Positions 792-43,000 of a stretch of 60,251 nucleotides of DNA are shown piece after piece. Each line of letters begins with the position of its first letter. Position 1 is the stretch's first letter. The translations under genes and the position numbers were made by a program. The notes beneath the pieces were generated by a model. It was not told the DNA's origin, did no database searches, and saw only the letters and a list, made by a program, of their open reading frames with translations. The DNA lies in the IMG/VR virus record IMGVR_UViG_3300037963_001896, positions 1 through 60,251 of that record; one strand, given 5' to 3'. This DNA is from a virus (taxonomy: Duplodnaviria; Caudoviricetes).

Positions 792-1808
792 ATGCATTCA
801 ATCAAACCAACCCATCTCAAGTCAGAGATAAAACAAAATATGCAATCGGGCATCAACACCATGATCTGGGGTGGTCCCGGCATCGGTAAGTCAGAGATAC
901 CACAACAAATAGCTGACGAGACCAACAGGACGTTGTTAGATTTCAGGGCCAACTTGTTTGACCCAGTCGACGTCCGAGGTGTGCCGTACGTTGCACAACT
1001 CAAAGAGTCTGTTAAAAGATTTACACGTTGGGCTGTGCCTGATGTGTTTCCAATTGAAGACAGAGACGGTACAGAAGGTATTTTTCTTATTGACGAATTA
1101 CCAACTGCACCCCCAGCAACACAAAACGCATTTCTACAGCTATTGATAACCAGGGAGGTCGGTAACTACAGGTTACCAGACGGATGGTCAATCATTGCTG
1201 CTGGTAATCGTTTAACTGACGCTGCGGCTGTCTATCAAATGCCATCACCTGTTAGAAACAGATTGGCACACTACGAACTCGAAGCCGATCTGGATGATTG
1301 GTGTGAGTGGGCAGTATCCAATGGAGTGGATACGTCCCTTGTGTCGTTCCTACGATACAGACCCAACTTGCTATTCGATTTCAACGCTGAAAACTATGCT
1401 TTTCCAACTCCTCGAAGCTGGTCGTACGTTGACAAACGACTAAAGCTACCGGCCGTGGACGAAGAAACATTGTTCTACGGTGTATCTTCTCTGGTCGGAG
1501 ACGGTCCAGCAGGTGAGTACGTAGCGTTTAGAGAAATATATGAGGCTTTGCCTGATATAGATTATCTAATAGACAATCCGCAATCATACAAGTCAGACGA
1601 TAGTCCGGCTGTGTTGTACGCTCTATCAGGTGCTCTGGCAGCTCGAGCTTGTAACGAAAAGATGGAAAACATCATCAAGGTAATCAAGAAGTTACCTACA
1701 GAGTTCCAAGTTATTGCTGTCAAACAATCATTAATCAAAGATAAATCAGTTATTTCACACGACAGTGTAGATAAGTGGTTATCTGATAACTCAACTGTAA
1801 TTTTATAG
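792..1808 (+). CDS. MoxR-like AAA+ ATPase
   Basis: Walker A GGPGIGKS, Walker B FLIDE, AAGN sensor, arginine finger RNR, PTPRSW. Confidence 0.9.
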   Translation: MHSIKPTHLKSEIKQNMQSGINTMIWGGPGIGKSEIPQQIADETNRTLLDFRANLFDPVDVRGVPYVAQLKESVKRFTRWAVPDVFPIEDRDGTEGIFLIDELPTAPPATQNAFLQLLITREVGNYRLPDGWSIIAAGNRLTDAAAVYQMPSPVRNRLAHYELEADLDDWCEWAVSNGVDTSLVSFLRYRPNLLFDFNAENYAFPTPRSWSYVDKRLKLPAVDEETLFYGVSSLVGDGPAGEYVAFREIYEALPDIDYLIDNPQSYKSDDSPAVLYALSGALAARACNEKMENIIKVIKKLPTEFQVIAVKQSLIKDKSVISHDSVDKWLSDNSTVIL

Positions 1809-1816
1809 GAGGTAAT

Positions 1817-2527
1817 ATGAGTACAGTAAGAATGTCAGAATATCTCAAACGTGACATTGTAAAAAAGTTTGAGGAATCCCACAAAAAGTCCAAACCACAA
1901 ATGGAGTTGGACGTGGCTCGTGGAGATGCAATATACAACGAGTACATTGGATCCAAAATCAGTACTGCAATAGAACAGCTTTCTGAAACCTTTGGCGATA
2001 CAGTCGATGTCGAAGACTTATTTCCAAAGAAAAGCAGTATTGAGGTAACAGTTCCTGTTCATGTAACAAAACTACGATGGGATGGAGAAGAGTACGTCAA
2101 AGAAACAGAATTAGATGAGGACTATAATTTAACTGTTCCTTTATCTACAGAACGTAGAGTTTTCTATGGTTTTAGTAACGACGGCTATTACGGACGTCAA
2201 ATCAAATACAATTTTGACCGTTACGAAAACAAAGACCTTAATTATTTATGCGAAGTTGTAGAGTACAACAGTAAATTAAATTCTATTCGAGATCTTTCAG
2301 CTAGAAAAGTCGAAGAGCTATTAGACAAATTTACAACGCTAAATCAAGCACTTAAAGCATGGCCAGCCTTGTCCAAACTTGTTGAGCCTGAAAAGCTTGC
2401 CAAAGTGCATGAGAAACAACAACGCAAGCGTAAACAAGAACAACAGAAACAAATGGCAGACCAGGTTGTAGTAGATAACGACCTTAACAAAACCATTTTA
2501 TCTGCATCACTCATAGGAGATGAGTAA
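1817..2527 (+). CDS. Hypothetical protein of the AAA/vWA module
   Basis: 236-aa ORF, GGAGG RBS, coupled to the next gene. Confidence 0.8.
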   Translation: MSTVRMSEYLKRDIVKKFEESHKKSKPQMELDVARGDAIYNEYIGSKISTAIEQLSETFGDTVDVEDLFPKKSSIEVTVPVHVTKLRWDGEEYVKETELDEDYNLTVPLSTERRVFYGFSNDGYYGRQIKYNFDRYENKDLNYLCEVVEYNSKLNSIRDLSARKVEELLDKFTTLNQALKAWPALSKLVEPEKLAKVHEKQQRKRKQEQQKQMADQVVVDNDLNKTILSASLIGDE

Positions 2528-3645
2528 TGAATGAGTATACAAAAGCTAGATCTCAGCTGATTCTTGCTAACCCGTTCTTCGGGACGCTAGCTTTACGCTT
2601 AAAACCCATCGAAGACGAGTCCGTAGGTACTGCAGCAACCAATGGTGAGTACATAAAGTACAACCCAAAATGGTTTCTGAAACTAAGGGATCAGGAACGC
2701 ATTGGCTTAATCGCTCATGAAGTATTGCATGTTGCTCTCATGCATATGCTCAGGAGGAATGAGCGTGATCCACAAAAGTGGAACATTGCTGCAGACTACG
2801 TTATCAATCTTGCACTCAAGAAAAGTAATTTCATACTTCCACATACAGAACTGCTGGATGACCAGTACGACGGTATGTCTACCGAAGAAGTATACAATTT
2901 GCTGCCTGACGACATTATGGACGGCAATGGCCCGTTTAGTGTTTTACTACTAGACGGGGACGATCCCGGTGGATGTGGTGGAGTTATGGACCACCCATCT
3001 ATCGGTGATGGTTCAGCGTCAGGTAAATTCGAAGCAGAAATAGAAATTGCCGTGCAACAAGCAGCAGAAGCTGCTAAAGCAATGGGTAAGTTGCCTGGTC
3101 ATTTACAAACACTTATCGAAAAAGCGTTAGCTCCTAAAGTTGACTGGAAAATGACGTTGGCTCGGTTTCTGCGATCAAATAACAAATCTGATTTTACGTG
3201 GATACGCCCCAACCGCAGATTTATTGCTACTGGTAAGTATTTACCTTCTCTACATACACCCTGCCTGGAAGAGATAGCAGTTGCTGTAGATACTTCTGGT
3301 TCTGTCAGCGATGACGAGCTTGAACAGTTTACTGGCGAGATTACTTCTATCTTGCACGACACCAATCCTGAACGCATACATTTCTTGCAATGCGATACCG
3401 AAGTACGTAACGACGAGGAGTACACACGAGAAAGTTTACCACTCAAAGTTACTTACGAAGGTAGAGGTGGCACTGCTTTTAGACCAGTAATTAATTACAT
3501 CAACGAAACCCATCCTGGAGTATCTGCTCTTGTGTATCTTACCGATTTGGAGTCAAACGATTTCGGAGATCAACCGCATTATCCAGTTCTTTGGGTGTCA
3601 ACACATTTAGAGGAGGCACCTTATGGTGAAATCATCAAGATTTAA
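2527..3645 (+). CDS. Putative metallopeptidase plus vWA-like protein (DUF2201-type)
   Basis: HEVLH zinc motif, WNIAADYVIN, MIDAS DTSGS, GGT and LTD motifs. Confidence 0.88.
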   Translation: MNEYTKARSQLILANPFFGTLALRLKPIEDESVGTAATNGEYIKYNPKWFLKLRDQERIGLIAHEVLHVALMHMLRRNERDPQKWNIAADYVINLALKKSNFILPHTELLDDQYDGMSTEEVYNLLPDDIMDGNGPFSVLLLDGDDPGGCGGVMDHPSIGDGSASGKFEAEIEIAVQQAAEAAKAMGKLPGHLQTLIEKALAPKVDWKMTLARFLRSNNKSDFTWIRPNRRFIATGKYLPSLHTPCLEEIAVAVDTSGSVSDDELEQFTGEITSILHDTNPERIHFLQCDTEVRNDEEYTRESLPLKVTYEGRGGTAFRPVINYINETHPGVSALVYLTDLESNDFGDQPHYPVLWVSTHLEEAPYGEIIKI

Positions 3646-8613: not shown

Positions 8614-8799
8614 ATGAGCAATCTGATACTAACGAGAAAGAAGCAAGAATGTATTGTTATTTATGATAAAGATACACCTGACGCTATCTTGTGTGAGATT
8701 GTTGTTACCTCCCTTGGCACTAAACAGGTTAAGTTAGCTTTTGAAGCTGACCCTAATATTAAAATAGACCGAAAGGAAGTTTATGAAGAAAATAAATGA
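8614..8799 (+). CDS. csrA: Carbon storage regulator CsrA-like RNA-binding protein
   Basis: LILTRK...E.I.I...I.V......QVKLAFEA...IKIDRKEVY aligns with CsrA MLILTRR...QVRIGVNAP...VHREEIY. Confidence 0.85.
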   Translation: MSNLILTRKKQECIVIYDKDTPDAILCEIVVTSLGTKQVKLAFEADPNIKIDRKEVYEENK

Positions 8800-15924: not shown

Positions 15925-16086
15925 TTACTTGTCCTTTGCTTTTCCTATATTCAAAGCCAAGAAATCTATGACTTTATATAGCTTAGCTAAAAGTTTATCT
16001 CCTTGTGGGGTTGGTGTAATTGCTGCTACGAAAGACGCAATAGCAATAATAGACGTAATCCACATAAATATGTTGATATATAGCAT
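15925..16086 (-). CDS. Small membrane protein, possible holin (53 aa; not in ORF track)
   Basis: AGGAGG RBS; MLYINIFMWITSIIAIASFVAAITPTPQGDKLLAKLYKVIDFLALNIGKAKDK. Confidence 0.7.
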   Translation of the reverse strand: MLYINIFMWITSIIAIASFVAAITPTPQGDKLLAKLYKVIDFLALNIGKAKDK

Positions 16087-16108: not shown

Positions 16109-17887
16109 TTATTCCATAAATGTGAATACTCTCAAAGGTTTTGCTTTACCTTTTACAGGCATAGGATCCAACTCTTGTAAGTAATAGCCACACAAAGATT
16201 CTGTCCGTTCACCTATAAGTATGTCTTTACCTGCTTCTTTAGTTGCTGACTCCAAGCGTGCACCACAGTTTACTGCATCTCCAATTGCTGTGTAATCGAA
16301 CCGTGATTCGCTGCCCATGTTTCCTATTACCGCTTCACCTGTGTTTACACCGATTCCGATCGCAATAGGGGGAAGTCCTTCAACTTGCAGTTCATTATTC
16401 AACTCTTTCATGTTTTTAACTATATCGTGCGCACAATCACATGCAGCTTTTGCATGACTAGGTATATCTAACGGAGCGTTAAATATAGCCATCATGGCAT
16501 CTCCAATGTACTTATCTACCATCCCACCGTGCTTTTGTACTGCTTCTTGTTGTGCTGTAAGAGCTTTATTCATTACGTACGTTACTTGTTCAGGTTCTAG
16601 CTTTTCAGACATAGAGGTAAAACCCCTAACGTCTGTAAATAAAAACGTAGCTTCTTTCTTTTCACCGCCTAACTTAAGTATATCTGGGTCATCTTGCAGA
16701 CGTTTTACCTGCCTAGGATCTAAGTAATGTTCAAATTGTTTCTTAATCTGCTGGCGAAGGAGTGATTGTTCTCTAAAGTTAAGCCAGAATTGCTGCCCTA
16801 ATATAAGCAACAGTGATATACCACTATAAGTAGTGTCTATTAATAAAGCTTTTTGACTTACAAGATACCACTCAAGTCCAGCTGTACTTACAAGAAGACC
16901 TGCAGCTCCAAGTGCCATGTACGCGTACGTACATTTACGCCCGAGCAGGAGACCCAATGTACACAAAACTAAAAATATAAGTAGCTCGTATACAAGCCTA
17001 TCTGCAGGTATTTGTGGGCTGTTAGGTAATAATAAACTCTCCGCCAGGGCTGCTTGTACGTGATGAGGGTTTAATAGACCGTCGGGCGTGGCTATTTGAG
17101 GCATAACACCAGCTGCTGTAACACCAATAAACACAAACTTTCCTTCTACCTGGGGGTCTTGTAACGTAGTTTTAGGTGTATCCACCCAAGAAATCCACTT
17201 TCTGCCGTATTTATCTGTAGGTATTACACCTAACGCAGGTATCCGAACCGCTTGTATACCACTTTCGTATGTTTTAATCTGATATGTTCCTTCCCCGGTT
17301 AAAACTTTTAGTACTTGTGTAGCAAATGAAGCAACCCAACCCTTGGGAGTTTGTACAATAAGAGGAACTCGTCTAACTAAGTTATCCACATCTGTTGGGG
17401 CTGATACAATACCTTGATAAGCCGCTTCTTCTAGCTGGTTTACGTTAGCTAAATGCCCTGACAATGTAATCATATCTACAGGGTTATCCCCAAGAACTAC
17501 AGTTCCATCAGTAGATGGATAGATTCGGTTTTCATATTCAGGTATTGCCAGTACGTTTGTGCCCTGCTGCAGACTCATTGCGAACTCGGCATCACCACCA
17601 AAACGATCTGCTTGTGGAAACATAATTACCCAACCCACGCCTAACGCTCCACGGTCGAGCAAGTCTGTTTGTATTTCTGCTAATCGCTGTCTTGGAAAAG
17701 GCCAACCGCCTTCTTTACTAATATCATTTTCAGTGATATCTAGTATTACAAAGTGGCCGCTGGGAGTTTGTTCTTGTACAAGTGCATCAAAGGTTTTAAG
17801 GCGAAGTACCTCTAAAGCTTTATAATCAAATATAAGTGGCAGTGATAATACTGCTACTGTAACTGCCCCTATTAACCACTTACTCAT
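16109..17887 (-). CDS. Membrane-bound CHASE2-domain class III adenylate cyclase
   Basis: N-terminal TM, CHASE2 (GGWPFPR, DVDNLVRRVPL), 3 TM helices, FTDVRGFT, DKYIGDAMM, DYTAIGDAVNCGARLE. Confidence 0.93.
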   Translation of the reverse strand: MSKWLIGAVTVAVLSLPLIFDYKALEVLRLKTFDALVQEQTPSGHFVILDITENDISKEGGWPFPRQRLAEIQTDLLDRGALGVGWVIMFPQADRFGGDAEFAMSLQQGTNVLAIPEYENRIYPSTDGTVVLGDNPVDMITLSGHLANVNQLEEAAYQGIVSAPTDVDNLVRRVPLIVQTPKGWVASFATQVLKVLTGEGTYQIKTYESGIQAVRIPALGVIPTDKYGRKWISWVDTPKTTLQDPQVEGKFVFIGVTAAGVMPQIATPDGLLNPHHVQAALAESLLLPNSPQIPADRLVYELLIFLVLCTLGLLLGRKCTYAYMALGAAGLLVSTAGLEWYLVSQKALLIDTTYSGISLLLILGQQFWLNFREQSLLRQQIKKQFEHYLDPRQVKRLQDDPDILKLGGEKKEATFLFTDVRGFTSMSEKLEPEQVTYVMNKALTAQQEAVQKHGGMVDKYIGDAMMAIFNAPLDIPSHAKAACDCAHDIVKNMKELNNELQVEGLPPIAIGIGVNTGEAVIGNMGSESRFDYTAIGDAVNCGARLESATKEAGKDILIGERTESLCGYYLQELDPMPVKGKAKPLRVFTFME

Positions 17888-18999
17888 CCTGAGTTCTGCT
17901 TAATAGTAATATTTGACCCGCCGCCATTAATAATAATTTGATTAGATTTCCCATCTTGTATAAGTATAACCGTATATCCCTGCGAAATGTTTAAATCCAC
18001 TCGTACTGTCTGACTTACAGATCTTCGCAAACTTAACATTTCTCCCTGGATAATAGTTGTAATTTGCGTTTGGGGGTCTTGTCCTATTTGTGTGCCTCTA
18101 ACTACTGTAGAACTAACATCGCTTTTTAACTCATCATCTTGAAGCACGTCTAGTTCTTCAATTACAGCAAGCAGATCTTCAAGAAAGTTAGTATCTAAAT
18201 AGTTTATATCTAGCTCGGTAAACTCTAAATCAGTTTCATTATCAAGAAAATCTTCGGCAAGAAAGTCTATATCTAAGTCATTAAAGTCCAAATAACTTGC
18301 ATTACTAGAAACAGCGTTCACCGTCTGTGCTTGTACGTCTTCTTCAGGAGGCGTTACAATTAACATGTTATCTATAAGCTCAAGTGTTATATCTAAAATA
18401 ACCGGTTTGCTAGGTGTAGTTTCAAACACACTTACAGTCGTAGCCTGGTAAGGTTTGTTTAACACAACATCGCCCATTGCAGTAGATACAAGTATTTCTC
18501 CTGAAGAAACACCATTAGCATCAGGTAGTAATATTATTAAAGATCTACCTAACTCATCTACGGTGCACGTAAAATCAGTCCCTCGAATTGCAATATTTGC
18601 AGTGGGAGTACGTATACTTATGTTTTCTTTACGGATTGTGTTTATTTTGCCAGATACATAACGGATGGTCCCGCTGGCAAATTGTAAAGCCATCTGTGAT
18701 TTAGATGGATCTGGGTCATAGATGTATTTATCTACAACAAGTTTAGAGTGCTCAGTTAAACGTACAACCGAATCATCTAAAAAACGAAGACCTATACGTC
18801 CATTACTAGTACGTACATCGTCCTGGGACTGTATTCCTAGTTTCAGTTCTGCATCATAAGGTTTATCCCGTATGACTTTGGCAAAACCTGTTAGTTCAGA
18901 TACATTCCCTATATCAACAACTTGTGCTAGTTCCGCCGTCGTTTTGAACGACGCAAACAGTACCGTTGTTGCCAGAAGAAATAATCTTAAGGTAGTCAT
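17884..18999 (-). CDS. Exported FecR-domain protein
   Basis: Signal peptide; D.VRT...F.DDS.VRL.E.S.L; IRTPTANIAIRGTDF. Confidence 0.85.
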   Translation of the reverse strand: MTTLRLFLLATTVLFASFKTTAELAQVVDIGNVSELTGFAKVIRDKPYDAELKLGIQSQDDVRTSNGRIGLRFLDDSVVRLTEHSKLVVDKYIYDPDPSKSQMALQFASGTIRYVSGKINTIRKENISIRTPTANIAIRGTDFTCTVDELGRSLIILLPDANGVSSGEILVSTAMGDVVLNKPYQATTVSVFETTPSKPVILDITLELIDNMLIVTPPEEDVQAQTVNAVSSNASYLDFNDLDIDFLAEDFLDNETDLEFTELDINYLDTNFLEDLLAVIEELDVLQDDELKSDVSSTVVRGTQIGQDPQTQITTIIQGEMLSLRRSVSQTVRVDLNISQGYTVILIQDGKSNQIIINGGGSNITIKQNSG

Positions 19000-19639
19000 T
19001 ATCCAATGTGCTTTGCTGCTCTATGTTAAACGTCCTGCTATTACCTGTTTGATCTAAGTAAAAATAACCACCCGCATAACCATCTGCATCAAAAGTAAGA
19101 GTGTTGCTGTCACCATCAACATCAACATAATTTGTTGCTCCGTCATAATCAATGTCTATAGTAAATGTGTTGCTGTCACCTTGAATGATCCAATCTAGAT
19201 CTAAACCGCTAGCTAACGCATTAGTGCCCTGGTCAAAAGTAAATGTGTTACTTGACCCTGTTACATCAACATTCCAATTGGAATTATCAATACCGTAGGT
19301 ATTTGTAGGATCACCTTGAAAAGTAAAGGTGTTACTGTCGCCATCGAATTCAAAAAACCCTGTAAGTGAGTCTCCCCAAATATCACCCAAGAATTTATTG
19401 CTGTCTCCAATTTGATTTATATCTAGAGTTAAACTAGTGCCGTCTAAATCTAAAGGAGTAAGTGTGCCTGCAATCGAATTCAGTCCTCCTATAATATTCC
19501 CTGATCCTAATTGCTCTAAGTCTATATTAGCTGTCGCTCCTGACTGATCTATATAAATCTCGTTATCCGCTGCAAACGTAACCAAAGGAAATAACAGAAA
19601 GATACTAAGAAGAAGGCTCTTGCTCTTGTTCTTTTTCAT
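18914..19639 (-). CDS. Secreted curlin-like beta-repeat protein
   Basis: Signal peptide; repeated Q/V-x-G-D/S-x-N units about 23 aa apart; C-terminal Cys pair. Confidence 0.75.
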   Translation of the reverse strand: MKKNKSKSLLLSIFLLFPLVTFAADNEIYIDQSGATANIDLEQLGSGNIIGGLNSIAGTLTPLDLDGTSLTLDINQIGDSNKFLGDIWGDSLTGFFEFDGDSNTFTFQGDPTNTYGIDNSNWNVDVTGSSNTFTFDQGTNALASGLDLDWIIQGDSNTFTIDIDYDGATNYVDVDGDSNTLTFDADGYAGGYFYLDQTGNSRTFNIEQQSTLDNDYLKIISSGNNGTVCVVQNDGGTSTSC

Positions 19640-20450
19640 CTTCTAATCTCCAAAAACCAGCGTTTTCACCCTCCTTGATTACTTCTAATACCGCTGTTTC
19701 GATAGCTGCACGTAATGCTAAATTTATAGATTCATTGCGTACTCTACCACTCTCAATTTCAACCAACTCAGTTCCTGTTGATATGAACCTAAAGACATCT
19801 TGACTTACCGAAGCACTTAAAATAGTCTTTGTAACCAAGACATCCAGTAATACTTTACCTGTAGCCACGGAAACAACGCGGAGGGAAACGGACACGGTGT
19901 CACGCCGATATTCTTTTGAGCCGCCAATCCCTAAATGACGTGCTCCTGCGCCTCCAGATTCAATATTACTCTCATATCCTACCACACCACCTTCTATTAT
20001 CAAACCAGCGAACAAAAGTGCGGGTAGTTTGTTCTTCTCATCAAACTCTTGGCGTGTGCTACGAATAAGCTGACGTTCTTTAGTAACGTGGTCTAAACCA
20101 ACCCGTTCGACAACTTCAAAAAATCCATTTTCGTTTGTTCCAGCGTGTTTAAGAGCGCGAATTAAATACACATACGGAGCTTGAGTAACTGCAGTAGAAA
20201 ATGTAGCAAACGAGCTGTTGCTTCTACGCTGACCTGTATCGTCCTTAAAACCATCTGCATACACAGCGACTACTGGTTTCTTTGTAGTTGCACTGCGCAC
20301 ATTCGCTAACTCAGTAAGAACAATTTGTTCGACTTGGGCTTCTTCTATGCGTTCAATTGGCCCTATGTTGTTTTCAATAGGGTCAAATAGTAACGCACAG
20401 CTAGAAAGTAAAGGAACCAATAGGAAGGGTAATTTCTGTAGTATTCCCAT
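19605..20450 (-). CDS. csgG: Curli secretion pore CsgG-like lipoprotein
   Basis: Lipobox LLSSC; VAVY..F.D.TGQR, FSTAVTQ, VVERVGL...KERQLIR, IIEGGVVGYESN. Confidence 0.9.
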   Translation of the reverse strand: MGILQKLPFLLVPLLSSCALLFDPIENNIGPIERIEEAQVEQIVLTELANVRSATTKKPVVAVYADGFKDDTGQRRSNSSFATFSTAVTQAPYVYLIRALKHAGTNENGFFEVVERVGLDHVTKERQLIRSTRQEFDEKNKLPALLFAGLIIEGGVVGYESNIESGGAGARHLGIGGSKEYRRDTVSVSLRVVSVATGKVLLDVLVTKTILSASVSQDVFRFISTGTELVEIESGRVRNESINLALRAAIETAVLEVIKEGENAGFWRLEDEKEQEQEPSS

Positions 20451-20940
20451 CAGCGTCTGTAATTTTAAGTGTGATATAGTCTCCATCTACTGAGTACTCA
20501 ATTGTGTTACCCATCAATTCTAACACACCGCTTTCGCTTGGCGTTTCTCCAAACAATTGTTCTACTAACTGCCTAGATAATTGAGCGTAGATTCTAGACT
20601 CTAAATTTCTAATAAATCTTGCAAGAGTAGTGTTTTCTTTCTCTCTTTCAAGTTCTTCTCGATAAGCTTTAATTTCTTCTTTAATCGCTTTTTTACGATT
20701 AAATTCTTGGTTTTCTATTGTGAGGTAGTGACTAGAAGTGCCTATGCCACTAAAAGAAGGGTTCTTAAACTTGTGCACCATTTCATCAGCGTTGAGCTGC
20801 GATGCAAAAATACCACCTAATAAAAAGATTCCAATAGCACAGATGATGTATAGAAGTCTTTGCTTATCCGCTTCTCTTTTCCTAAAAGCTAGTTCAGCGT
20901 TGCTGGGCCTTCCTCGCTTTTTAGTCTTTACGTTGGTCAT
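20401..20940 (-). CDS. csgF: Curli assembly protein CsgF-like
   Basis: After a hydrophobic signal, DEMVHKFKNPSFSG matches CsgF GTMTFQFRNPNFGG; LESRIYAQLSRQL. Confidence 0.85.
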   Translation of the reverse strand: MTNVKTKKRGRPSNAELAFRKREADKQRLLYIICAIGIFLLGGIFASQLNADEMVHKFKNPSFSGIGTSSHYLTIENQEFNRKKAIKEEIKAYREELEREKENTTLARFIRNLESRIYAQLSRQLVEQLFGETPSESGVLELMGNTIEYSVDGDYITLKITDADGNTTEITLPIGSFTF

Positions 20941-21271
20941 CTCTATCTGCTTTTGCTATTTTATCTGTATCTATTAAGTTAGGTACTCCTAAAATTGTTT
21001 TAATCATCGTGTCCTGACGTATGATTTCGTTGTCAAGACTACGAACTCTATCTATCAAGGCTACCAGTATACCGTGCTGTGAGTCAAGTTTTGTGCCAAG
21101 ACGTTGTTCCATCTGCTCTATCTGTTGAGCTACTTTATCGTCTACAACGTCTAGTTTTGACTCCATTCCATCTACAATCCGTATCACTAACTTGTAGATA
21201 AACCAGCCTAGACCACCGGCCGCAGCTATAGGGAAGCCAACTTCGTTAATAAACTTAATGGCTTCTTCCAT
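20921..21271 (-). CDS. Membrane-anchored coiled-coil protein heading the curli cassette
   Basis: VGFPIAAAGGLGWFIY TM followed by a coiled coil. Confidence 0.75.
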   Translation of the reverse strand: MEEAIKFINEVGFPIAAAGGLGWFIYKLVIRIVDGMESKLDVVDDKVAQQIEQMEQRLGTKLDSQHGILVALIDRVRSLDNEIIRQDTMIKTILGVPNLIDTDKIAKADRDDQRKD

Positions 21272-21461: not shown

Positions 21462-21722
21462 TTAAGAAGGTCTTAAAGGCCATGACCATTCGCCACATGT
21501 TCCATCTAGCGGATTAGTTTTTTCTTCGCTTACAAAATCTGAATGTGCCTGTAAAGTAGCTGGTAAATCTCTTAAAGTTGCCCTATAAGTAGCCCACTCA
21601 GCTTTTTTAGAATTTGATAAAGGGCTATCTGCAGCTTGAGTCCAATCTGATTTTTGCAACAAAGCGTTTCTCTTCTCTCGTATAGAAGCCCATATTTGCG
21701 TAAAATCAGTCATCCCTACCAT
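21462..21722 (-). CDS. Tail fibre assembly chaperone-like protein
   Basis: IREKRNALLQKSDWTQAADSPL...WATYRATLRDLP...WP. Confidence 0.85.
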   Translation of the reverse strand: MVGMTDFTQIWASIREKRNALLQKSDWTQAADSPLSNSKKAEWATYRATLRDLPATLQAHSDFVSEEKTNPLDGTCGEWSWPLRPS

Positions 21723-21723
21723 T

Positions 21724-24183
21724 TTATTTATTTAACCCGTACACGTTTACTGTAACATCATAAAACTTATTACTACCACCTGTGTCATCAATAGCGCCAA
21801 ACACCCATACATAATATTGAGTGCTTGGAGCAAGATCTGCTTGAACAGCCAACTGATGCGCTCCTAATACAATTGCAGAACCTCCAGCAGATTTTGCTGT
21901 ATAAGCTACGTAATCTCCTAGTGTAGTAGAAGTGTAATTAGTAGATGAACTAGTAGCTCGCACAACCATAGCTAGTTCAAGCTCTTCATGGCCCGCTGTA
22001 GAACTACCACTAACATTACCCATACATTGTATGATATGTCTTCTATTACCACTGTAACCATAAGTAGTAAAAGTATAAGAAAGTAAAGGACTGCCCCCTA
22101 ATATAGTGCTACCTGCATATATTGCCGGTATAGACCCTGTTTCACCACTGTCGTTGCCCGTAGTTTGTGTAACACTAGCTATATGAGGAGGGTAATTATT
22201 ATCAATATTTCCAGAACCAAAAGCAGGTCTATATAATTCACTATAAACATATAAACTTAATGAAGCATAAGCTTGACCACCAATAGTTCCTATTGAATTT
22301 GCAAGAGATTTACCTGCAATATCTATACTATTAGCAGCAACACGATCAGCATTTAACGTACCTGTACTTATTGAGCTTGCGTTTATTGCTACTGCGTTTA
22401 CAAGAGTAGCACTAAGAGATCCGATTTGTGCTGCAGCGATAGAAGCATTTTTTATAAACGCTGTATCTATGTACACGCCCGCCGGGTTACCAGCTCCGTC
22501 TGTACTTGTAAGTACAGTAAACGGAACTATGTTATTGCCATGCGGGTTACGTATAGTTACCTGGCCTGCTTCAAATATTATGTTTGATGTAGAAGTATTG
22601 TTATTCAACGTGCCAGAACTATCTGCCATTAAGTACATACCAGCTACTGCGCCGTTAGCATTCACTGCTACACCATAGCCAGCTTGTGCAGACGTACCGT
22701 TAGTTAACGCGTTTTGTACTGCTGTTACCGAAGCAGTAGAAGCTTTTGTACCTAAAGCTGTGTTGGTGTTAGTTTCTAGCGTAGTTATCGCTGTAGCGTT
22801 TGCCGTGTCTGCAGTAGCACGAGTATTAGCTTCCGTAGTTATAGCAGCTTCGCTAGTTACATCACGTACTTCAACCCAGTTAGACCCGTCCCATCTATAT
22901 TGCTTATTAGCAGGACTGCTATTGGTATCAAACCAAATGTCTCCCGTATTGTTTGCGGTTGGTTGACTAGCTTGAGTAAACACCGTGGTTTTACCATCGT
23001 TAGCTGTATCTCTTACAACAACCCAACTAGACCCATTCCATCTGTACAGCTTGTTGTTGTCATTAGAATCTATCCAAAGGTCGCCAGTAGCTACAGCTGT
23101 AGGAGCATTGTTTTGTACAAAAGTCTGATTTTTATTGTCTACTGTACTAGTTAGATTAGTAATTGAAGTCGCATTAGCAGAGTCACCGTTCGCTCTAGCA
23201 GTAGCTTCAGAAGTTATAGCAGCAGCAATAGTACTAGAGTTACTATAACCAGTAGTAATTGCTTCTAGTTCAGTTATCTCACTAACACGAGCCGTATTCT
23301 CACTAGTTAAAGTTACTATATCACCTTGCGCTGAAGCTAAAGCAGCGGTAAGACTTGAACCTGTGTAAGACGCACTACCTACAATATTAACTAACGTAGC
23401 GTCTCGAGCTGCAACCCAACCATTATTAGCTGCGTTCCGGGTATACACTTGACCGTCGTCCGTGTCATACCAAATGTCGTTCGTGGTCAATGCATCTCCG
23501 CCATCACGTTGTGTAGGCGCAGAAGATGATTTAATAACCGTAGCTGCAGTACCAGCTGAACTGCTAATTAAAGAAGTTAGTGTGCTATACCCAGGTAAGT
23601 CAGCTAGCGTTTCACTTAAATTAGTCATAACTGCGGCTATATCAATAGATGTAGTGCCGTTACCAGAAGAACTATAAGCTCCAAAAACTTCTGCGTTACT
23701 TACATGACGCACCCAATAATAGTAAGTTTTGTTATACCCAACTTCTTCTGACCACACAAAAGCAGACGTAGTATCTACTTTTATTGCATCCCCTAATGAG
23801 CTGGTAGTACTTCGCCATACTTCAGTATTACCGAAGTTACTCATTTGTGGGTTATCCCAGGCTAATATAAAAGAAGTGTACGAAGCAGTAACACTAAAGC
23901 CTGTAGGTGTAGGAGGTATTGTAAAATCTGTATAGGGAGTAGTACCACCGAAGTCTGTTACACCCGTGCCCGCATTTGGATCAAAAGGATTGTCCAAAAG
24001 CTCTTGGGCCATACCACTATCAATCAACTCTCTAAGAGTAATAGCTCTATCTCGAGGGTCACCTCTACGACCAAGGCGTACCTCAAGTGCTTCTTTTACA
24101 GAGTTAGCAAACTGTTTTAGTTCTGGATCAGCTTTAGAAGGAACCTTATAGATAGAAGGGACTTTAGTACCTTTAGTAGCCAT
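21724..24183 (-). CDS. Tail fibre / host specificity protein
   Basis: FN3-like segment, three PT...GDIW.D...YRW.G..WV repeats, A/T-rich coiled segments, VYIDTAFIKNASI. Confidence 0.8.
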   Translation of the reverse strand: MATKGTKVPSIYKVPSKADPELKQFANSVKEALEVRLGRRGDPRDRAITLRELIDSGMAQELLDNPFDPNAGTGVTDFGGTTPYTDFTIPPTPTGFSVTASYTSFILAWDNPQMSNFGNTEVWRSTTSSLGDAIKVDTTSAFVWSEEVGYNKTYYYWVRHVSNAEVFGAYSSSGNGTTSIDIAAVMTNLSETLADLPGYSTLTSLISSSAGTAATVIKSSSAPTQRDGGDALTTNDIWYDTDDGQVYTRNAANNGWVAARDATLVNIVGSASYTGSSLTAALASAQGDIVTLTSENTARVSEITELEAITTGYSNSSTIAAAITSEATARANGDSANATSITNLTSTVDNKNQTFVQNNAPTAVATGDLWIDSNDNNKLYRWNGSSWVVVRDTANDGKTTVFTQASQPTANNTGDIWFDTNSSPANKQYRWDGSNWVEVRDVTSEAAITTEANTRATADTANATAITTLETNTNTALGTKASTASVTAVQNALTNGTSAQAGYGVAVNANGAVAGMYLMADSSGTLNNNTSTSNIIFEAGQVTIRNPHGNNIVPFTVLTSTDGAGNPAGVYIDTAFIKNASIAAAQIGSLSATLVNAVAINASSISTGTLNADRVAANSIDIAGKSLANSIGTIGGQAYASLSLYVYSELYRPAFGSGNIDNNYPPHIASVTQTTGNDSGETGSIPAIYAGSTILGGSPLLSYTFTTYGYSGNRRHIIQCMGNVSGSSTAGHEELELAMVVRATSSSTNYTSTTLGDYVAYTAKSAGGSAIVLGAHQLAVQADLAPSTQYYVWVFGAIDDTGGSNKFYDVTVNVYGLNK

Positions 24184-25942: not shown

Positions 25943-26353
25943 TCACCCCTCCAAAACTAAATCTTTTAGTCGGGTGCTCCTCGGTCCTACTTGTACAGCC
26001 CACTTTGAATCTAACATCTCAACGCCAGCTGTCTCCCAGTCTCCTGCCTCCATGGCAGCTAAAAAGTTTTTGAACCCCATAAGCCTAGATAGACCTAAGT
26101 TGAAGCACATATTTACCATAACACGCTGTCTAGTGTCAGATAAATCTACAAACCAAGGGAAAGCGTTAGTAAGTTCTTCTATACAAATGTCAATGTCATT
26201 ACTTAATAAATAATCAGACTCGTCATCTGTAATGCCGCGATCGTCCAAATTTCTGCCCACGCCAATTGTATTTTTGCCTGCGCTGCATTGGTACAGAGTA
26301 AGAACTACCCCTTCGTCACGTTTTAACTCTTCGATTAACTGCTCTCTATTCAT
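25943..26353 (-). CDS. Endolysin, T4-type lysozyme (GH24)
   Basis: DEG....Y.CSAGKNTIGVGRN, NMCFNLG, DSKWAVQV..R. Confidence 0.9.
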   Translation of the reverse strand: MNREQLIEELKRDEGVVLTLYQCSAGKNTIGVGRNLDDRGITDDESDYLLSNDIDICIEELTNAFPWFVDLSDTRQRVMVNMCFNLGLSRLMGFKNFLAAMEAGDWETAGVEMLDSKWAVQVGPRSTRLKDLVLEG

Positions 26354-26828
26354 TATCTTTACCGCCCCCATGAGACGCACCAAAGTAAAAAGATATAACA
26401 GCAGACGCTAAACCACCTAAATATCCCAAAACAAGGTTAATTAGAGCTTCGCTGTTTTGCTCTGGCGGTTGTAGGGTTACTAAAAATATATACCCAAGAA
26501 AACCGCCTAACGTAGCAATACCCATAATACGGGTAGTCCAATCTTTAGAAAATTTACTTCTAGCATCTTGTATATCTTTAGTTTCTAAAGCAAATACATC
26601 TACTTCTAACTCGGCCATTTGCAATTCAAAAGCTTGTTCAGCTTTTTTAAGTTCTAGCATTTGTTCAGGTGTTGCAGCTTGAACTGCTTTTTGAATAGCT
26701 TTTGGGTTGTCATCGCACCCTAAAACACTTGCAATTGTTTTTGCAGCCATACCGCCCATAGGACCACCTAGTGCAGTCCCTAATGTAGGAGCTACTGCCC
26801 CTACAAGATTTTTTAATAATGCTTTCAC
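26346..26828 (-). CDS. Holin-like membrane protein
   Basis: APTLGTALGGP, two C-terminal TMs, FYFGAS; adjacent to the lysozyme. Confidence 0.7.
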   Translation of the reverse strand: MKALLKNLVGAVAPTLGTALGGPMGGMAAKTIASVLGCDDNPKAIQKAVQAATPEQMLELKKAEQAFELQMAELEVDVFALETKDIQDARSKFSKDWTTRIMGIATLGGFLGYIFLVTLQPPEQNSEALINLVLGYLGGLASAVISFYFGASHGGGKDNE

Positions 26829-37022: not shown

Positions 37023-40000
37023 TTACCTAATTGCTGCGTATCCAGGCAGATAATCAGATAACTTGGCGTTACCTCGTACTAAATCTTCTAACCTTTCGGC
37101 AGAAGGACCTAAAGCTGGTGTAATAAAGGAATTATCATATCTACCGGCTTCTAGCATAGGTATAATTAAACCGTATGGCCCCAACACTCCAGCTCTATCT
37201 ATAATCTCTCCTGTATAAGGAAGCCAGTCCATATTATCGCTTCTAAACGCGTTATCATCAAAACCACGCCCTACGTATTTAAGCCACTCTCTCATTTCCA
37301 AACCCAGCATAGTCAATGGTAGTAAGGTGAGAGCAGCTAGTGCTAAAGGAACAGCTCCACTAGAAATAGTTCCGTCTTCAGAATATCTATTGCCAGATTC
37401 GCGCATTGCTCCGCCTACAATGTTTTTACCGTAAGCATAGAAGAAAGACTTAAGCTGCCAAATAAGTGCTGTATAAGGGTTAGAAGCCCAAACAGGTCTT
37501 TCTGCAGCATTCGGACGTACAATAGATTCCTCTACAAACCTACCAATCGCCATTTGTACTCTTTGTCCCTCTGGAGTACTAAAACTACGACCACTAGCAT
37601 CCCAAGCTTTTATATCTTCTCTACTTACTTGTAGTTCGCGTAAGAACCTATTAGACCTATCGCTGTTTGCGTTTGCTTGGCGAATTAAAAACTGTTCGCC
37701 CATACCAGCAGCAAAAACTCTAGTAAAGTTTGTATACCACTCTAAACCAATAGCTTTAAAGAAAAGATCTGAATACTTTTGCGCTGTAGGGGTCATAAAG
37801 CCCATTTCATTAGCTTGCATAATACTGGTATTAAGAGAGTCATAGGTTATTACACCTACGTCCCTAGCAAACTGTTGCATTTCTTTTGTATCGGTAAAGT
37901 ACCTACGTACCTGAGTAAATCCTTCCTGTAGATTCTGCCAAGACAAATCTTTAGACCTTAATACAGGTCCTGCTAAGTCTGGTAACGAGGCAAGAGTAGC
38001 AAAGGTCAAATATGTCACAATGTTCACAGAAAGAAGCACACTGTTGATTTGGCGCATTGCAGGGGACATGTTTAACCCCGACTTACCTAACATAGCTTTT
38101 AAAGCATCTCTGGCAGCAGCCCTATTAGTCTCATCTGGCACTCTAAGTAACAATGCTTCTACTGCTTGCCAACCATCTACTACGTCTCCAACCTTTTTGC
38201 CCTGAAAAGACTGCCTAAAAGCTACAGCTTGGTTTTTGATGTTAGCCATATCCTGTTTAGTAAGCGTAGTTTGGAACTTTTCTTTGTAGTCTAAACGCTT
38301 AGTCATATCCTGTACGTACCTACGTATAGCAGTATTGGCATCCTCGAGTGCGCCTATATCGCGAAGCCTCTCATTAGGAATATCTTTAAAGTATTTAGCA
38401 CGAGATTCGTTTGTACCTATTGCAACATCCGCTACATCAGGTCTTGGGTTATCTGTATTGTCTTCTCCCTCCCGAATCATAGCCTCTACTACTTTATTAA
38501 AGTCTCCGGGGGTTCGGCTCATTTCTTCCCCCTTCAGGTTGTAGATAACAATGTCATCAGGGCCGTCTGGGTTAAATTCTTCTAATAACGCAACTAGGTC
38601 TGCTCTAACTTGTTCATTAGCTTGAAGTTCAGCAATAGCAATAATACGAGGATAGAAATGTTTTCGTTTAAATACATCATCCCTGCCTCTAATATAATCC
38701 TCATAGAAATCATCTAAGTACTTACGTACTGCCCTAGCTTGAGGGCTTCTAAGTTCACTAATAGGAACTTTCCGTTCTGCATCACGTAAAATAGACTCAA
38801 AGGCATCTAGATCAGGAACTACTTTCCCAGTAATAGTAGTTTTAGTAGGCGCTAGTTTATGTAAGTCGTTAAGTCTCTGATACATAAGAAGAACACGAGC
38901 ATTTAAATGTCCAGTTTTTTCTTCTGATTGCGACATAGAATAAATGCCATTGGCTAATTCAGGCGCGTACTTACCTACTAATCCCCTTAAATAGTTGTGA
39001 GCGGGCTGTAAAAAATACCCAACAGACCAATGCCTTCTGTCGTTTGGCATTAATTCTCTGCCTGCTTCCAAATTTTCAGTAATCAGTCGTCTTATCTGTT
39101 GGACTGCCTTCCTGGGCATAAAACTCTTTAAGGTAGTAGAAGCCTCATCCACCATATTTCGCACTACAACCCTGTCACTATATGTCATAGGTGCGTTACG
39201 TTGCTTACCATTTTGATAAGACTTTATAACTTCTTGTACATAATCATTAAAAGCCGGACTAGTCGGTCCTTCACTAAACCTAAGTCTTAATGTTGAATCT
39301 AGGCTTTTAAATACATCTCTAATCTTATCTGCTAGGCGTTTAAAGAAACTTTCAACCCCGTTAGTAGGCTTCTTAGCTTCGTTTAAAAGCCAAGTCCCCA
39401 TTTTATCGGAGAACCATTCTTCAAATCCAAACTCGCCTTCGTACTGACGTCCCCCGATACCGGCCTCTTTATCTTTTTGAAAAGCTGCTTCCAAATCTTT
39501 ACGCAACTTAGGATTAGCTAAAGAACGATTTAATTCTTGATGGAAGATAGCGTGACCTAATTCATGCCCTAAAGTTAGAATGGCTTTTACTTGCTGTACA
39601 GGATTAGGGTTTGCAGGCACATCTATTACAATAAGATCAGTGTCACCAAACCTTATGTATTTACCTGACTCCCCTTTTTCACGCATATTGGCTACTGTCT
39701 GTTTAACCAAATCAGGGATAGCGTACTGTTTACCCTCAAAAGTAACAGTCTCGACCATTTTATTTTTAGGTCGTAAAAATTTATCGTCTTTTAAAACATT
39801 TTCAGCTGTAGTAATACGAGTAGTCCGTCCTCCATACCCTAACTTATTAGAAATAAGACTAGATAACTGAGGCCACAAACCCCCCATAACAGAGTTCCAA
39901 CTTGCATCTATTTCAACTTTGCCTTTTTTAGCCCCAGGCTTACGCTTCATTTGTTCGCTTTGTAGCGTATCCATAATAGGATCCGCAGTAGGACGCCCTT

Positions 40001-43000
40001 CTATGTTTAACCCTGTAAGAGGTAATTTTTCTAAATTATCTTCACTTTTTATATCTTGCTGGGCAAACTCATCTCCGATACCTTCTTCTTCAAATTCAGC
40101 TTTATCTATGTACTTTTCGTCTTCTTGCCTTTGTATTTCATTTAATCTAGTACGCGGGTTTGAGCTAAAGTTTCTCCATTTTGGTCCTGAGTTAACAGTA
40201 GGAGCAACGTAAGGAGCTTTAATCCGTAGCGCCACTCTATTCATTCTGTCTTCGTATTCAGCTTTAGTCTCTGCTTCAACAGTAAATCCAGCTTCGTTTA
40301 CATATTCTTCTCGAATAGGGTACTTAGCGTGTGCCTGCTCATGGCGTATAATAAACTCTCTGAACTGTTCTAAAGTTGTAAACTGATCTTCTGGCAAGGG
40401 TGTAACCCCTTCTACATTTGGCTTAGTCCAAGCTTTATCTTCAAACTTCTGCCTAAGCGTCTGCATGTTGACATAGATCTCTTTAGTCTGCCTGTTATAT
40501 CTGGCCCACGCCTTACCTCGCGGCGTTTTCTCTTCTCTGTTTATTTTAGGTTCGGGTAGACTAAAAGGGTCAAAAGTTGCTCCTATCTCACTTGCCCCCG
40601 AAGCTTCTTCTGCTTCTTTGTATATATCGCGTTCCCTAAAATAAACTCTTTGAGCATCTAACTCAGCTTCTAACTTAGACTTTTCAATGTTCATTTCTCG
40701 CGAAGTAGGTTGCATAGAAGCAGGACCTTCTCCTTCCCTTTCTGGAATAGCACGGCCTTGCTCAGCTCTCTTAAACGATATAGGTGTACCACCTTTTAAT
40801 TGATATATAGGAGCGTTTTGCCAATTTTGAGACGCATTTAGGGGCTGACCTTGGTAAAGAAGTTCATAACCATTTTCCGCTAACGCTTCAAACATACGTG
40901 TAAAGCCATCTGAAATACGACTAGTGTCTGCAGTAAATGTTTGGGGTTCGTTTAAACCTAAATTCATACCAAACTGAACTAAATTACCTAAATAAACAGC
41001 TCTACCCGAATCATTTTGCCCAACTTCTCTGACAGACCAACCTTTTGTTATATTCCTAAGAGCGGGTTTAGCTCTAGAAGCTTGTGTTACTACATCCCCA
41101 ATACGTTCTGCTGCATTTATTCTGTCTCCCGGTAACACGTCTCTAGGAGAAGTAGCAATAGTCCACTCTCCATTTTCATTCTGCCTAGGAGTTAAAATAA
41201 GATTGGGGTTAGTCCTAGCTTGAGCTTTAAAAGCTTCAAGGAACGCAGTAGGTAAAGTATCTAAAAGAGCTTCAATATCCGGAGAAGCTTCTATTTCGTT
41301 TATTTCTAAAAAGCCATTCTTACCAAATATTAAATCTTCTCTTTTATCTAGCTCTGCATTTGTCTGTTCATCAGTCATTCCTTCAAACGCGTTCTCAGCG
41401 TTTCTTGCAGGCCAAGTTAAAACAGGACGATTTTGTCTAGCCTCGAGGATTTCTTCCTCAGTCATGTTTGCCTGTTCTGCTTTAGTAAGAGGTTTAGTAA
41501 TAAAACTTTCTCTGCTCGCGTCGAAAGTAGTACCCCCTTCACTAAACGCAATATCGTCCCCCTGCTCTTGCGTAACTGGGTCTGCAAGGCTTGTTGGGCT
41601 AGTGGGGTCTTGAGGACCCCCCTCTACTATCATGCTGCGGTCAGTAAAATCAAACTCTTGTTGCTGAGGAGCGGGACCTTCTTCTTGAGTCGGTTGTTGC
41701 GTCTGCTCTGCTTGCGGAGTAGGTTGCGCTTGTGGCCCTTGTTGGTCTCCAAAATCAAACGCTTGTTGCCTTTCATTAAAAGCTGCTTCTCTAGTAACTC
41801 CTTCAATGCTGTACTTCCCTTCATTAGGAAAACGTGTACGTGCGTGCAGTTTTACAGCATCTACATTTCCTTCAGTTGTAGTTTGTTGCCAAACAACATT
41901 ACCCGCAGAATCTTTTACCTGTACAACAGCATCATGTGAAGGATCTGAAACTTCTGTGTAACCTAAAATCTGCTGAAGAAAAGTTTCAGAAAAACCAGAA
42001 TCAATAGCGTCTTTAGCGTCAGTTTCAAAGTTCTTATTAGCCCTATCTAAAATTAAAAACCCTGAATTATTGGCGGTGTCATATACTATGCCGAACTTTT
42101 CTTCTATTTGAGCTGCGGTATATCCTTCTTCTACAAGGTCTTGTAAAAAATCATTAAGAGTATTAGCAGTATCTGCTTCATTTAAACCGTCAGTAGGAAG
42201 CCAAACTGCTTTAGTTTCTGTATCTTCATCTAAAAGAGATTGTATTTGAGCTTGAGACCATTCTTTTGGCTCAGGGATAACTCTACCATCCGACTGCCCT
42301 TTTTTACTTGCGATCGAAGCTTCTTCAGCTACATCAGCACCTTCTTGTGCCAACCCTCTAGCTTTACCAATAACATTAGCGACAGCCCCTGTAGGAGCTG
42401 ATCTGCCAGCTCCAGCCCAAAACCCAGCAAAAGCAGACTCGGCTCTTCTTAAATTCGCTTCTCTGTCGGAGTAGTCTGGATCAATTGCAAATCGTTGCTG
42501 AATAAAAAGTTCTTCTTGTATAGTTTCAGTAGTTCCTTCAACAAGTCCTCCTTTAAGTAATCCACCTCCAAAACCTTTCGCCGCTTCTTTTAGCCAACCC
42601 GCTGCTTCTTGGTCTCCTGTTTTAGCGTACTTACCTGCCATACGCTTAAACAAAGCCCCAACAAATAATTTTTCGCCTAATGTACCGATAACAGCTTGGG
42701 GTATACCAAGACCTAACGCTGCTGCAGCTTCTTCATTAGTTAATTTATAGCCAGCTTCTTCGTACTCACCTAACGCTTGTGACGAGCCGACTACATATTC
42801 TTGCCCACCTGCTCCAGCCCAAAAACCTGCGGATATAAAAGGAAAATTAGAAGGTACGCTACCTGTTCTAGCTAAATTTACAAAGTTAGGGTACTGCCCC
42901 ATACGTTTAACAGACTCGTACGCCCCAGCCAATATAGCTTCTTCAGATTCATCTAACGCTTCCCCCAATCCTTTTTTATGAGCTACTTTTTTCTTTAAAA

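Follow-up and report, generated by a model that had tools for sequence, protein, structure and literature searches.

Six overlapping genes on the minus strand (16109-21271) of the complete virus record IMGVR_UViG_3300037963_001896 from IMG/VR (60,251 bases; this whole stretch of DNA is referred to as the window) encode a small membrane-anchored coiled-coil protein, CsgF-like and CsgG-like proteins, a curlin-like repeat protein, a FecR-domain protein, and a CHASE2 adenylate cyclase. The cassette is almost certainly a member of the viral module comprising a type VIII secretion system (T8SS, curli), FecR, and adenylate cyclase, which was described by Wittmers et al. (2022; PMC9599517). Since the module was published in 2022, it is not new, and the finding is not a discovery; the window represents a further member of the module on another phage backbone. 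Comparison of viral loci showed FecR to be obligate beside the pore genes, with the cyclase as a frequent accessory.

Gene order and co-inheritance of the cassette

The cassette genes and the small gene following them are listed below from the first gene on (ORF, open reading frame, longest calls; aa, amino acids).

20921..21271, minus strand: small membrane-anchored coiled-coil protein, first gene of the cassette, 116 aa (ORF and alignment; no Pfam family at E ≤ 0.01)
20401..20940, minus strand: CsgF-like protein, 179 aa (Pfam CsgF, E 2.2e-18)
19605..20486, minus strand: CsgG-like outer-membrane lipoprotein pore subunit, 293 aa in the longest ORF (Pfam CsgG, E 8.8e-45)
18914..19639, minus strand: curlin-like beta-solenoid repeat protein, predicted secreted, 241 aa (leader, G-x-x-N ladder, structural model)
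17884..18999, minus strand: FecR-domain protein, predicted exported, 371 aa (Pfam FecR, E 5e-11)
16109..17887, minus strand: CHASE2 class III adenylate cyclase, 592 aa (Pfam CHASE2, E 3.7e-32; Guanylate_cyc, E 9e-22)
15925..16086, minus strand: small hydrophobic protein after the cyclase, 53 aa (phrog_9685, E 1.5e-10; hydrophobic segment 1-26)

The six ORFs overlap by 20, 86, 35, 86, and 4 nucleotides (nt) and occupy 5163 of the 60251 bases. This share of 8.6% is close to the 8.5% given in an earlier note on this DNA, and the six overlapping genes named there were borne out by the ORF list. The note had also placed the cassette at the end of the late arm, and indeed the tail-fibre and tail-fibre-assembly genes precede it on the same strand, with the convergent replication arm next to it. 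Of the five functions that the note named for the six genes, all could be assigned to five genes; the first gene is not a part of the pore, the substrate, or the sensor.

In the text of PMC9599517 as excerpted, on which all statements about that paper rest here and below, the same block is described in nine genomes of HTVC023P-type podoviruses and in pelagimyophages. Its order is histidine kinase, CsgF, CsgG, CsgA/B, FecR, often a second CsgA/B, and adenylate cyclase; the cyclase at the end of the block is frequent and not universal. The block makes up 7.8 ± 1.6% of a podovirus genome, was found at all 65 GOV2.0 stations, and its transcripts were detected in ocean metatranscriptomes; transfer between viral families is argued. 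The pelagiphage T8SS region and the window have in common a small upstream gene followed by the same five functions, a podovirus genome of about 60 kb, a similar share of this genome, and the lack of CsgE and CsgD.

The earlier note regarded csgF and csgG in the phages HTVC008M and Melnitz as established. This was correct and incomplete: both phages (KC465899.1 and MZ577097.1, respectively) have the same order, CsgF-CsgG-curlin-FecR-(second curlin)-cyclase, and FecR and the cyclase have also been published (PMC9599517). Two other papers, PMC7029224 and PMC9004378, treat only csgF/csgG, and the words "cyclase" and "FecR" are absent from their main texts. The cassette proteins of HTVC008M and Melnitz were 32–47% identical to those of the window, and the repeat protein had no tblastn match in Melnitz. 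Both phages have a second curlin-repeat gene, which is missing from the window, where the cyclase gene directly follows FecR. In the literature from 2022 on, no functional work on the block was found, as judged by titles and abstracts.

Co-inheritance was determined in IMG/VR with profiles built from viral homologues. Relatives of the cyclase were encoded by at least 594 stretches, and 287 relatives of CsgG were detected; the best 80 of each were analysed, so that both samples consist of the best-scoring loci and not of random draws. The whole block was present in the same order in all 19 cyclase-centred loci with at least 5.3 kb of upstream sequence; 6 of them had a second repeat gene before the cyclase, and 13 did not. 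FecR was found in 49/49 cyclase-centred loci with at least 1.25 kb upstream and CsgG in 31/31 with at least 3.6 kb upstream. One or two copies of the first-gene family preceded CsgF wherever there was room for them (19/19 loci). When the search was centred on CsgG, the repeat protein and FecR were present in all 42 loci with at least 4.8 kb downstream, and the cyclase in 36 of these. Joint inheritance of csgFG with FecR and the cyclase, on which the earlier note had staked its reading, was thus observed throughout for FecR and mostly for the cyclase.

The 53-aa gene behind the cyclase had tblastn matches in 21 of the 76 loci whose sequence extends 400 nt or more beyond the cyclase gene. It adjoined the cyclase (36–96 nt) only in the window lineage, L004-L006, and was located 0.8–1.1 kb downstream or 6–7 kb upstream elsewhere. 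Considering this variable position, we rejected it as a seventh member of the cassette and regard it as a loosely linked neighbour.

The repeat-protein gene and the FecR gene overlap by 86 nt (window 18914-18999), as they also do in two other loci, L200 and L237. In the window, the last 28 codons of the repeat protein overlap the first 28 codons of FecR in another frame, and both protein ends are conserved. Between positions 15200 and 22000, promoter-like sites numbered 9 vs. 17.6 expected and terminator-like sites 8 vs. 4.2 expected, none of either kind being usable. No tRNA was found by the tRNA scan, and no RNA run was present among the listed sequencing runs that hold window DNA.

Features of the cassette proteins

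Five of the six cassette proteins matched PHROG families. The matches were strong for four of the five named ones (E 2e-43 to 1.9e-132), and the 116-aa protein matched phrog_18771 at 7.8e-16; therefore, genes of this kind were already present in sequenced phages. No PHROG match was obtained for the repeat protein, and the cassette had no blastn match in the phage collection.

The 116-aa protein also matched a holin PHROG weakly (E 2.9e-4). In an alignment of 13 homologues, the hydrophobic stretch at the N-terminus was conserved and was followed by a coiled coil and a charged tail; none of the His residues was invariant. None of the 13 members matched HisKA or HATPase, and no PDB match was obtained for the family below E 0.3. 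The gene stands at the position of the "histidine kinase" of PMC9599517; this label found no support among the 13 members, which carry no kinase signal, and was set aside.

The CsgF-like protein scored 67 bits with Pfam CsgF (cut-off 25.8) and matched phrog_35372 at E 2e-43. It has a long charged leader followed by a hydrophobic segment (residues 27-51, hydropathy scan). An FKxPSFxG motif is located after the leader, and F58, K59, P61, S62, F63, and G65 were invariant in 10 viral homologues. When the viral CsgF profile was compared with the PDB, E. coli CsgF was reached only at E 0.74. Residues 65-289 of the CsgG-like protein aligned with chains 3x2r/6l7a of E. coli CsgG at 145 bits (E 1.8e-41); its hydrophobic leader, recognized by the hydropathy scan, is followed by LLSSC, which was read from the sequence as a lipobox.

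The repeat protein has an N-terminal hydrophobic leader, recognized by the hydropathy scan and in the sequence. Among 31 aligned repeat proteins, a G-x-x-N ladder was invariant (G45/N48, G78/N81, G100/N103, G128/N131, G154/N157, and G176/N179; period of about 22–28 residues). A C-terminal Cys pair was conserved, C241 being invariant in the 31 sequences. The best PDB match of the profile was a curlin associated repeat protein (8c50_A, E 0.0014). The AlphaFold2 model was an all-beta solenoid with a predicted local distance difference test score (pLDDT) of 83.4. VIA-align of the model gave Z 15–18 to SufB/SufD-type beta-helices and Z 10–13 to helices of adhesins, two-partner-secretion proteins, and autotransporters; CsgA-type chains were absent among the 50 rows listed, which leaves room for a curlin fold. 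Foldseek of the model against the PDB found nothing at E ≤ 0.001. On these data, the name "curlin-like" appears reasonable.

In the FecR-domain protein, the Pfam domain covers residues 60-149, and phrog_37870 was matched at 3.9e-71. The leader, which was below the threshold of the hydropathy scan and was read from the sequence instead, runs straight into the FecR domain; hence, the protein has neither a cytoplasmic anti-sigma domain nor a membrane helix. With the cytoplasmic anti-sigma part missing, the protein does not qualify as an anti-sigma factor of the FecR type. Behind the FecR beta-domain come a disordered, acidic linker (about 80 aa) and a small, compact beta-domain at the C-terminus. 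In the AlphaFold2 model, pLDDT exceeded 80 at residues 60-205 and 300-368 and was below 50 at residues 215-296. The top Foldseek matches of the FecR-domain model were the C-terminal cell-surface signalling domain of PupR (6ovk_R, E 2e-4), with which PupR binds an outer-membrane transducer, and 4m0h, an anti-sigma factor from Bacteroidetes. Complex prediction of FecR (residues 25-215) with CHASE2 (residues 24-296), based on custom alignments, gave a score of 0.00 vs. a mark of 0.32, which is evidence neither way.

The cyclase gene starts within the end of the FecR gene, its start overlapping the FecR stop by 4 nt. Pfam assigned residues 13-314 of the protein to CHASE2 and residues 410-584 to Guanylate_cyc, and the hydropathy scan revealed hydrophobic segments 1-23 and 293-321 flanking CHASE2. 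The layout thus comprises a first membrane helix, a CHASE2 domain predicted to be periplasmic, a membrane block from about residue 293, and a class III cyclase domain. The protein matched 6fht, 2w01, and 3r5g with 114–127 bits. In the alignment to 3r5g (CyaB of P. aeruginosa) and 2w01 (Cya2), the catalytic residues are D419, R421, K459, D463, T533, N540, and R544. Six of them were invariant in 32 viral cyclases, and T533 was kept in at least 90%. By the roles of these positions in class III cyclases, D419 and D463 would bind the metal, K459 and T533 would specify the substrate, and N540 and R544 would be the transition-state residues. Lys and Thr at the specificity positions are typical for class III enzymes using ATP. 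The statement of the earlier note that the catalytic residues are intact (two Asp, Lys, Thr, Asn, and Arg) agreed with the alignment to 3r5g and with the conservation in the 32 homologues.

Phage backbone and cellular relatives

Judged by its core genes, the carrier is a marine podovirus with a KPP25-like backbone and not an HTVC023P-type podovirus or a pelagimyophage. Its capsid protein was about 54–55% identical to that of KPP25 and 54% to that of phiR18 (both Pseudomonas phages), and the identity to the Aeromonas phage phiA008 capsid was 45%; TerL was 53% identical to phiA008 and 40% to KPP25. Ten of the 70 window genes were common to KPP25, among them capsid, portal (43%), TerL (40%), polymerase, primase, helicase, and exonuclease genes. 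Only four of the 70 were common to HTVC023P (TerL, 35%), with no capsid or portal match. Two complete cassette-bearing genomes, G001 and G002, were of the HTVC023P type (capsid 69–70% and TerL 52% identical to HTVC023P) and had no match to the window capsid. Guanine-plus-cytosine content was 41.1% in the window, 35.0% in HTVC023P, and 36.0–37.1% in G001/G002. One clade of PMC9599517 might already hold the KPP25-like backbone of the window.

The cassette proteins of the window and of G001/G002 were 57–84% identical, with one lower value among 12 comparisons (first gene in G002, 29%), whereas core genes were at most 35% identical or unmatched. Judged by these identities, the block travels between podoviruses of unrelated backbones as one unit, and the contrast points to selection on the whole block. 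Recombination inside the block is suggested by an IMG/VR contig of the window lineage (L004, 12,498 bases; helicase 82%, primase 89%), in which the cyclase was 74% identical to that of the window, and FecR, CsgG, and the repeat protein were 47%, 52%, and 30% identical, respectively. In this contig, a gap of about 750 nt separates FecR and the cyclase, giving room for a second repeat gene.

The lineage of the window is itself common. Six close relatives of the window (L171-L176) had the cassette and its flanks mostly 75–97% identical to the window; L184, L187, and L207 were more distant members of this lineage. Among the near relatives, the tail-fibre (35–74%) and tail-fibre-assembly (54–55%) genes at 21462-24183 (minus strand) were far more divergent than the cassette. 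As they also diverge more than the other flanks, the sequences suggest host-range swapping beside a stable cassette. Parts of the window were present in marine metagenomes from 10 studies.

Full copies of the cassette in the genome collection were located on short contigs, contigs of about 60 kb, or myophage-like contigs, all within metagenome-assembled genomes (MAGs). The labels of these MAGs were inconsistent (Neomarinimicrobiota, Pelagibacter, Maricaulis, Parvibaculum, Nisaea, Sphingobacteriales, and Rhodobacterales). Such copies look like binned phage DNA, and no host call follows from them. In one Neomarinimicrobiota MAG, the cassette is located on contig PBPT01000002.1 (60,834 bases; L085/L164/L167/L251/L255), both ends of which hold the FecR gene. 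This contig has the appearance of a whole phage genome with terminal redundancy that was sorted into the MAG.

Three further regions of the window were recorded. A 61-aa CsrA homologue, unrelated to CsgA (8614-8799, plus strand; Pfam CsrA, E 6.6e-12), is encoded between the DNA polymerase and primase genes and represents a phage-borne global RNA-binding regulator. The N-terminal part of a 2389-aa virion protein (37023-44192, minus strand) gave a lysozyme-like match (phrog_2083, phrog_7), its C-terminal part matched large structural proteins of virions, and a part of it was 26% identical to a KPP25 protein. At the left end (792-3645, plus strand), an AAA-type ATPase (phrog_1297), a 236-aa unmatched protein, and a DUF2201 metallopeptidase/VWA-like protein are encoded in a row.

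Outside viruses, the cassette has features in common with several bacterial systems. The curli system of E. coli (csgBAC-csgDEFG) has CsgG (145 bits) and CsgF (Pfam) in common with the window and a secreted repeat protein with a Q/x-x-G-x-x-N ladder, similar to the predicted secreted protein of the window. Unlike in this system, no CsgE, CsgC, or CsgD family was detected by Pfam among the 61 window proteins, the repeat protein fails Curlin_rpt, FecR and the CHASE2 cyclase are added, and the genes are phage-borne in a late operon. The FecR-domain fold (Foldseek, 6ovk_R) is common to the FecA-FecR-FecI and PupB-PupR systems; the window differs from them in that its 61 Pfam-scanned proteins include neither an extracytoplasmic function sigma factor nor a TonB-dependent transducer. 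In S. meliloti, the CHASE2 cyclases CyaD1, CyaD2, and CyaK of the NsrA-Clr pathway need an outer-membrane beta-barrel, and their output is cAMP (excerpts of PMC13001267 and PMC7529298). This pathway, likened here by description and not by sequence, differs from the window in that NsrA does not belong to the CsgG family, a plant protein serves as the signal, and Clr is known as the receptor, which this phage lacks.

Cellular relatives of the cyclase were 26–36% identical to the window cyclase, and the neighbours of cellular CHASE2 cyclases were scanned with Pfam in 21 loci. FecR adjoined the CHASE2 cyclase in four of them (L126, L128, L132, and L133); it was located within a two-partner-secretion pair in L132 (1/21) and followed a 2474-aa protein in L133. 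A TolC-ABC(C39)-HlyD type I system was located directly upstream of the CHASE2 cyclase in 5/21 loci, and a cAMP phosphodiesterase or CRP-like neighbour was found in 2/21. In two loci from Deferribacterales MAGs (L092 and L156), a 400-aa CsgG-domain lipoprotein and a FlgT_N-like protein were encoded directly upstream, which is a cellular case of a CsgG-family protein beside a CHASE2 cyclase. The five loci with the type I system (L104, L106, L120, L123, and L138), from Alphaproteobacteria or Micavibrio-like MAGs, form a conserved cluster of a TolC-like protein, C39-ABC exporter, HlyD, and CHASE2 cyclase, and a divergent EAL protein with a cyclic-nucleotide-binding domain accompanied it in four of the five. 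This cluster may be a circuit from a secreted peptide to cAMP to cyclic di-GMP.

Six clearly cellular relatives of the viral FecR protein, defined by profile match, were obtained from a search with the viral FecR alignment and a single-protein search. Three of these were encoded directly before a CHASE2 protein: a cyclase in L168, where a 1007-aa FecR protein overlaps the start of the cyclase, and histidine kinases in L261 and L262. In L259, the only cyclase near the FecR protein was a TPR-cyclase 4.6 kb away. In the other two proteins, the FecR domain is N-terminal, and RTX repeats (1343 aa; L260, 5946-9974) or cadherin/Ig (Big_9) repeats (1199 aa; L169, 8839-12435) come after it, i.e., the FecR domain is the head of giant surface-repeat proteins. 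A conserved operon of LysM-FecR and CHASE2-kinase genes has been described in Burkholderiales and P. aeruginosa ("BiofilmReg" in Burkholderia); interruption of its response-regulator gene abolished biofilm formation, and the CHASE2 ligand is stated there as unknown (excerpts of PMC5192318). These operons (PMC5192318; L168, L261, L262, L126, L128, L132, and L133) and the window have in common the adjoining FecR and CHASE2 genes. They differ from the window in the lack of CsgG, CsgF, and curlin-like genes, in the kinase output in Burkholderia, L261, and L262, and in the FecR partners, which carry LysM, RTX, or cadherin parts instead of the acidic linker and C-terminal domain.

Possible function of the cassette

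The mechanism that we favour, tentatively and with somewhat less than even confidence, is a curli-type export unit fused with a FecR/CHASE2 periplasmic sensor pair of the bacterial kind with cAMP output, all in one late operon. Lipoprotein CsgG would form the outer-membrane channel, and CsgF would plug or extend it from the outside; the curlin-like beta-solenoid would be the exported substrate, forming a surface fibre or cap. The exported FecR protein would work with the periplasmic CHASE2 domain of the inner-membrane, ATP-specific class III cyclase. By contact with CHASE2 or with the pore, it would couple CHASE2 to the condition of the pore or fibre, or to a cue from outside that reaches FecR, and so set cAMP synthesis, the signal presumably running inward. 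Because the phage encodes no cAMP receptor, its cAMP would act on host receptors. Such a relay from a surface sensor to cAMP, proposed in the earlier note, is plausible. It fits the PupR-like fold of FecR, the cellular FecR-CHASE2 pairs, the S. meliloti precedent, the coupling of the FecR and cyclase genes, and the conserved catalytic residues. The sensing of superinfection, the tuning of lysis timing, and the control of host CRP regulons that the earlier note brought forward are guesses.

Several observations weigh against this mechanism. In 6 of the 42 CsgG-centred loci, the block stops at FecR without a cyclase and the next genes lie on the opposite strand; because these loci keep FecR, it must have a role without cAMP. 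Most of the close cellular CHASE2 cyclases (17/21 loci) had no FecR neighbour, and the full cassette was not found on any clearly cellular contig in the genome collection. Concerning the output path, Pfam detected no cyclic-nucleotide-binding or CRP-type protein among the 61 window proteins. The repeat protein had no Pfam Curlin_rpt match, only DUF3060 below the cut-off, and its model was closer to generic beta-helices than to any listed solved curli subunit. The contention of the earlier note that the cassette is a relay rather than a biofilm system was not supported, given the universal and strongly conserved curlin-like ladder and the loci with FecR and no cyclase.

The strongest competing explanation, though in our opinion rather unlikely, is that the cassette serves only for fibres and adhesion: curli-like fibres would aggregate cells ("sibling capture") or block superinfection (PMC9599517; PMC7029224), with FecR as a periplasmic helper replacing CsgE/CsgC and the cyclase as an expression regulator or an unrelated passenger. 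CsgG, CsgF, and the conserved curlin-like protein always occur together, FecR is retained even where the cyclase is absent, and the lack of CsgE, CsgC, and CsgD among the window proteins leaves a vacancy for a periplasmic adaptor; the transcripts in ocean metatranscriptomes (PMC9599517) are also in line with it. The presence of the cyclase in 36/42 loci, its 4-nt translational coupling to FecR, and the retained catalytic residues argue against its being a passenger, and a regulator encoded in the late operon would make little sense as the regulator of this same operon in a lytic phage. Furthermore, proteins related to the viral FecR are partnered in cells with CHASE2 sensors and not with curli genes, and Melnitz cytograms and transmission electron microscopy showed no clumping (excerpts of PMC9004378).

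An improbable variant is that FecR itself is the substrate of CsgG and acts as a tethered plug. Its linker would thread the channel, its C-terminal domain would lie at the surface or in the fibre, and its FecR domain would stay in the periplasm on CHASE2, so that a pull on the surface part or its loss would change cAMP. The modelled domain plan (FecR domain, disordered acidic linker 215-296, and compact C-terminal beta-domain), the C-terminal motif NGGG-S-x-I-x-I-x-Q, which is similar to repeat-protein rungs, and the cellular relatives of 1199–1343 aa with N-terminal FecR before RTX or cadherin/Ig surface repeats are consistent with this variant. It derives wholly from predicted structure and domain order, and the Foldseek match of the C-terminal domain to the cell-surface anchoring domain 5ix9 (E 0.21, probability 0.99, 61 columns) is not significant.

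We consider it very unlikely that CsgG and CsgF form a gated, secretin- or pinholin-like hole for lysis timing (excerpts of PMC9004378) or an import conduit (PMC7029224; PMC9599517), with the other genes being accessory. The cassette lies in the late arm near a lysozyme gene (25943-26383; Phage_lysozyme, E 2.6e-11), and its first gene has the holin match mentioned above; this match is weak, the stronger matches of the gene being families of unknown function. CsgG is an outer-membrane protein, whereas holins act on the inner membrane. A pore of this kind would also leave unexplained the universal conserved repeat protein and FecR, as well as the cyclase.

A bolder extension of the favoured export-and-sensor mechanism, which we regard as doubtful, is that FecR and CHASE2 generally act as a trans-envelope pair of sensors for outer-membrane export machines of type VIII, two-partner, and type I, in phages through the CsgG/CsgF pore. 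The FecR protein would be threaded through this pore or docked on it, and the infected cell would read the state of its own fibres, or contact with particles or cells, as cAMP. By this signal, the host would be reprogrammed at a late stage of infection, e.g., to time lysis or to exclude other phages.

The new data concern the KPP25-like carrier, the obligate FecR with the cyclase as an add-on, the cellular FecR/CHASE2 counterparts with kinase outputs, and the frequent position of cellular CHASE2 cyclases beside envelope secretion systems in the 21 loci scanned. The module is very common in ocean viruses, as at least 594 IMG/VR stretches with cyclase relatives indicate, and the comparative results sharpen the question of its function. 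If FecR-CHASE2 pairs do act as export sensors, this would provide CHASE2 with its first defined input and marine phages with a surface-sensing second-messenger circuit.

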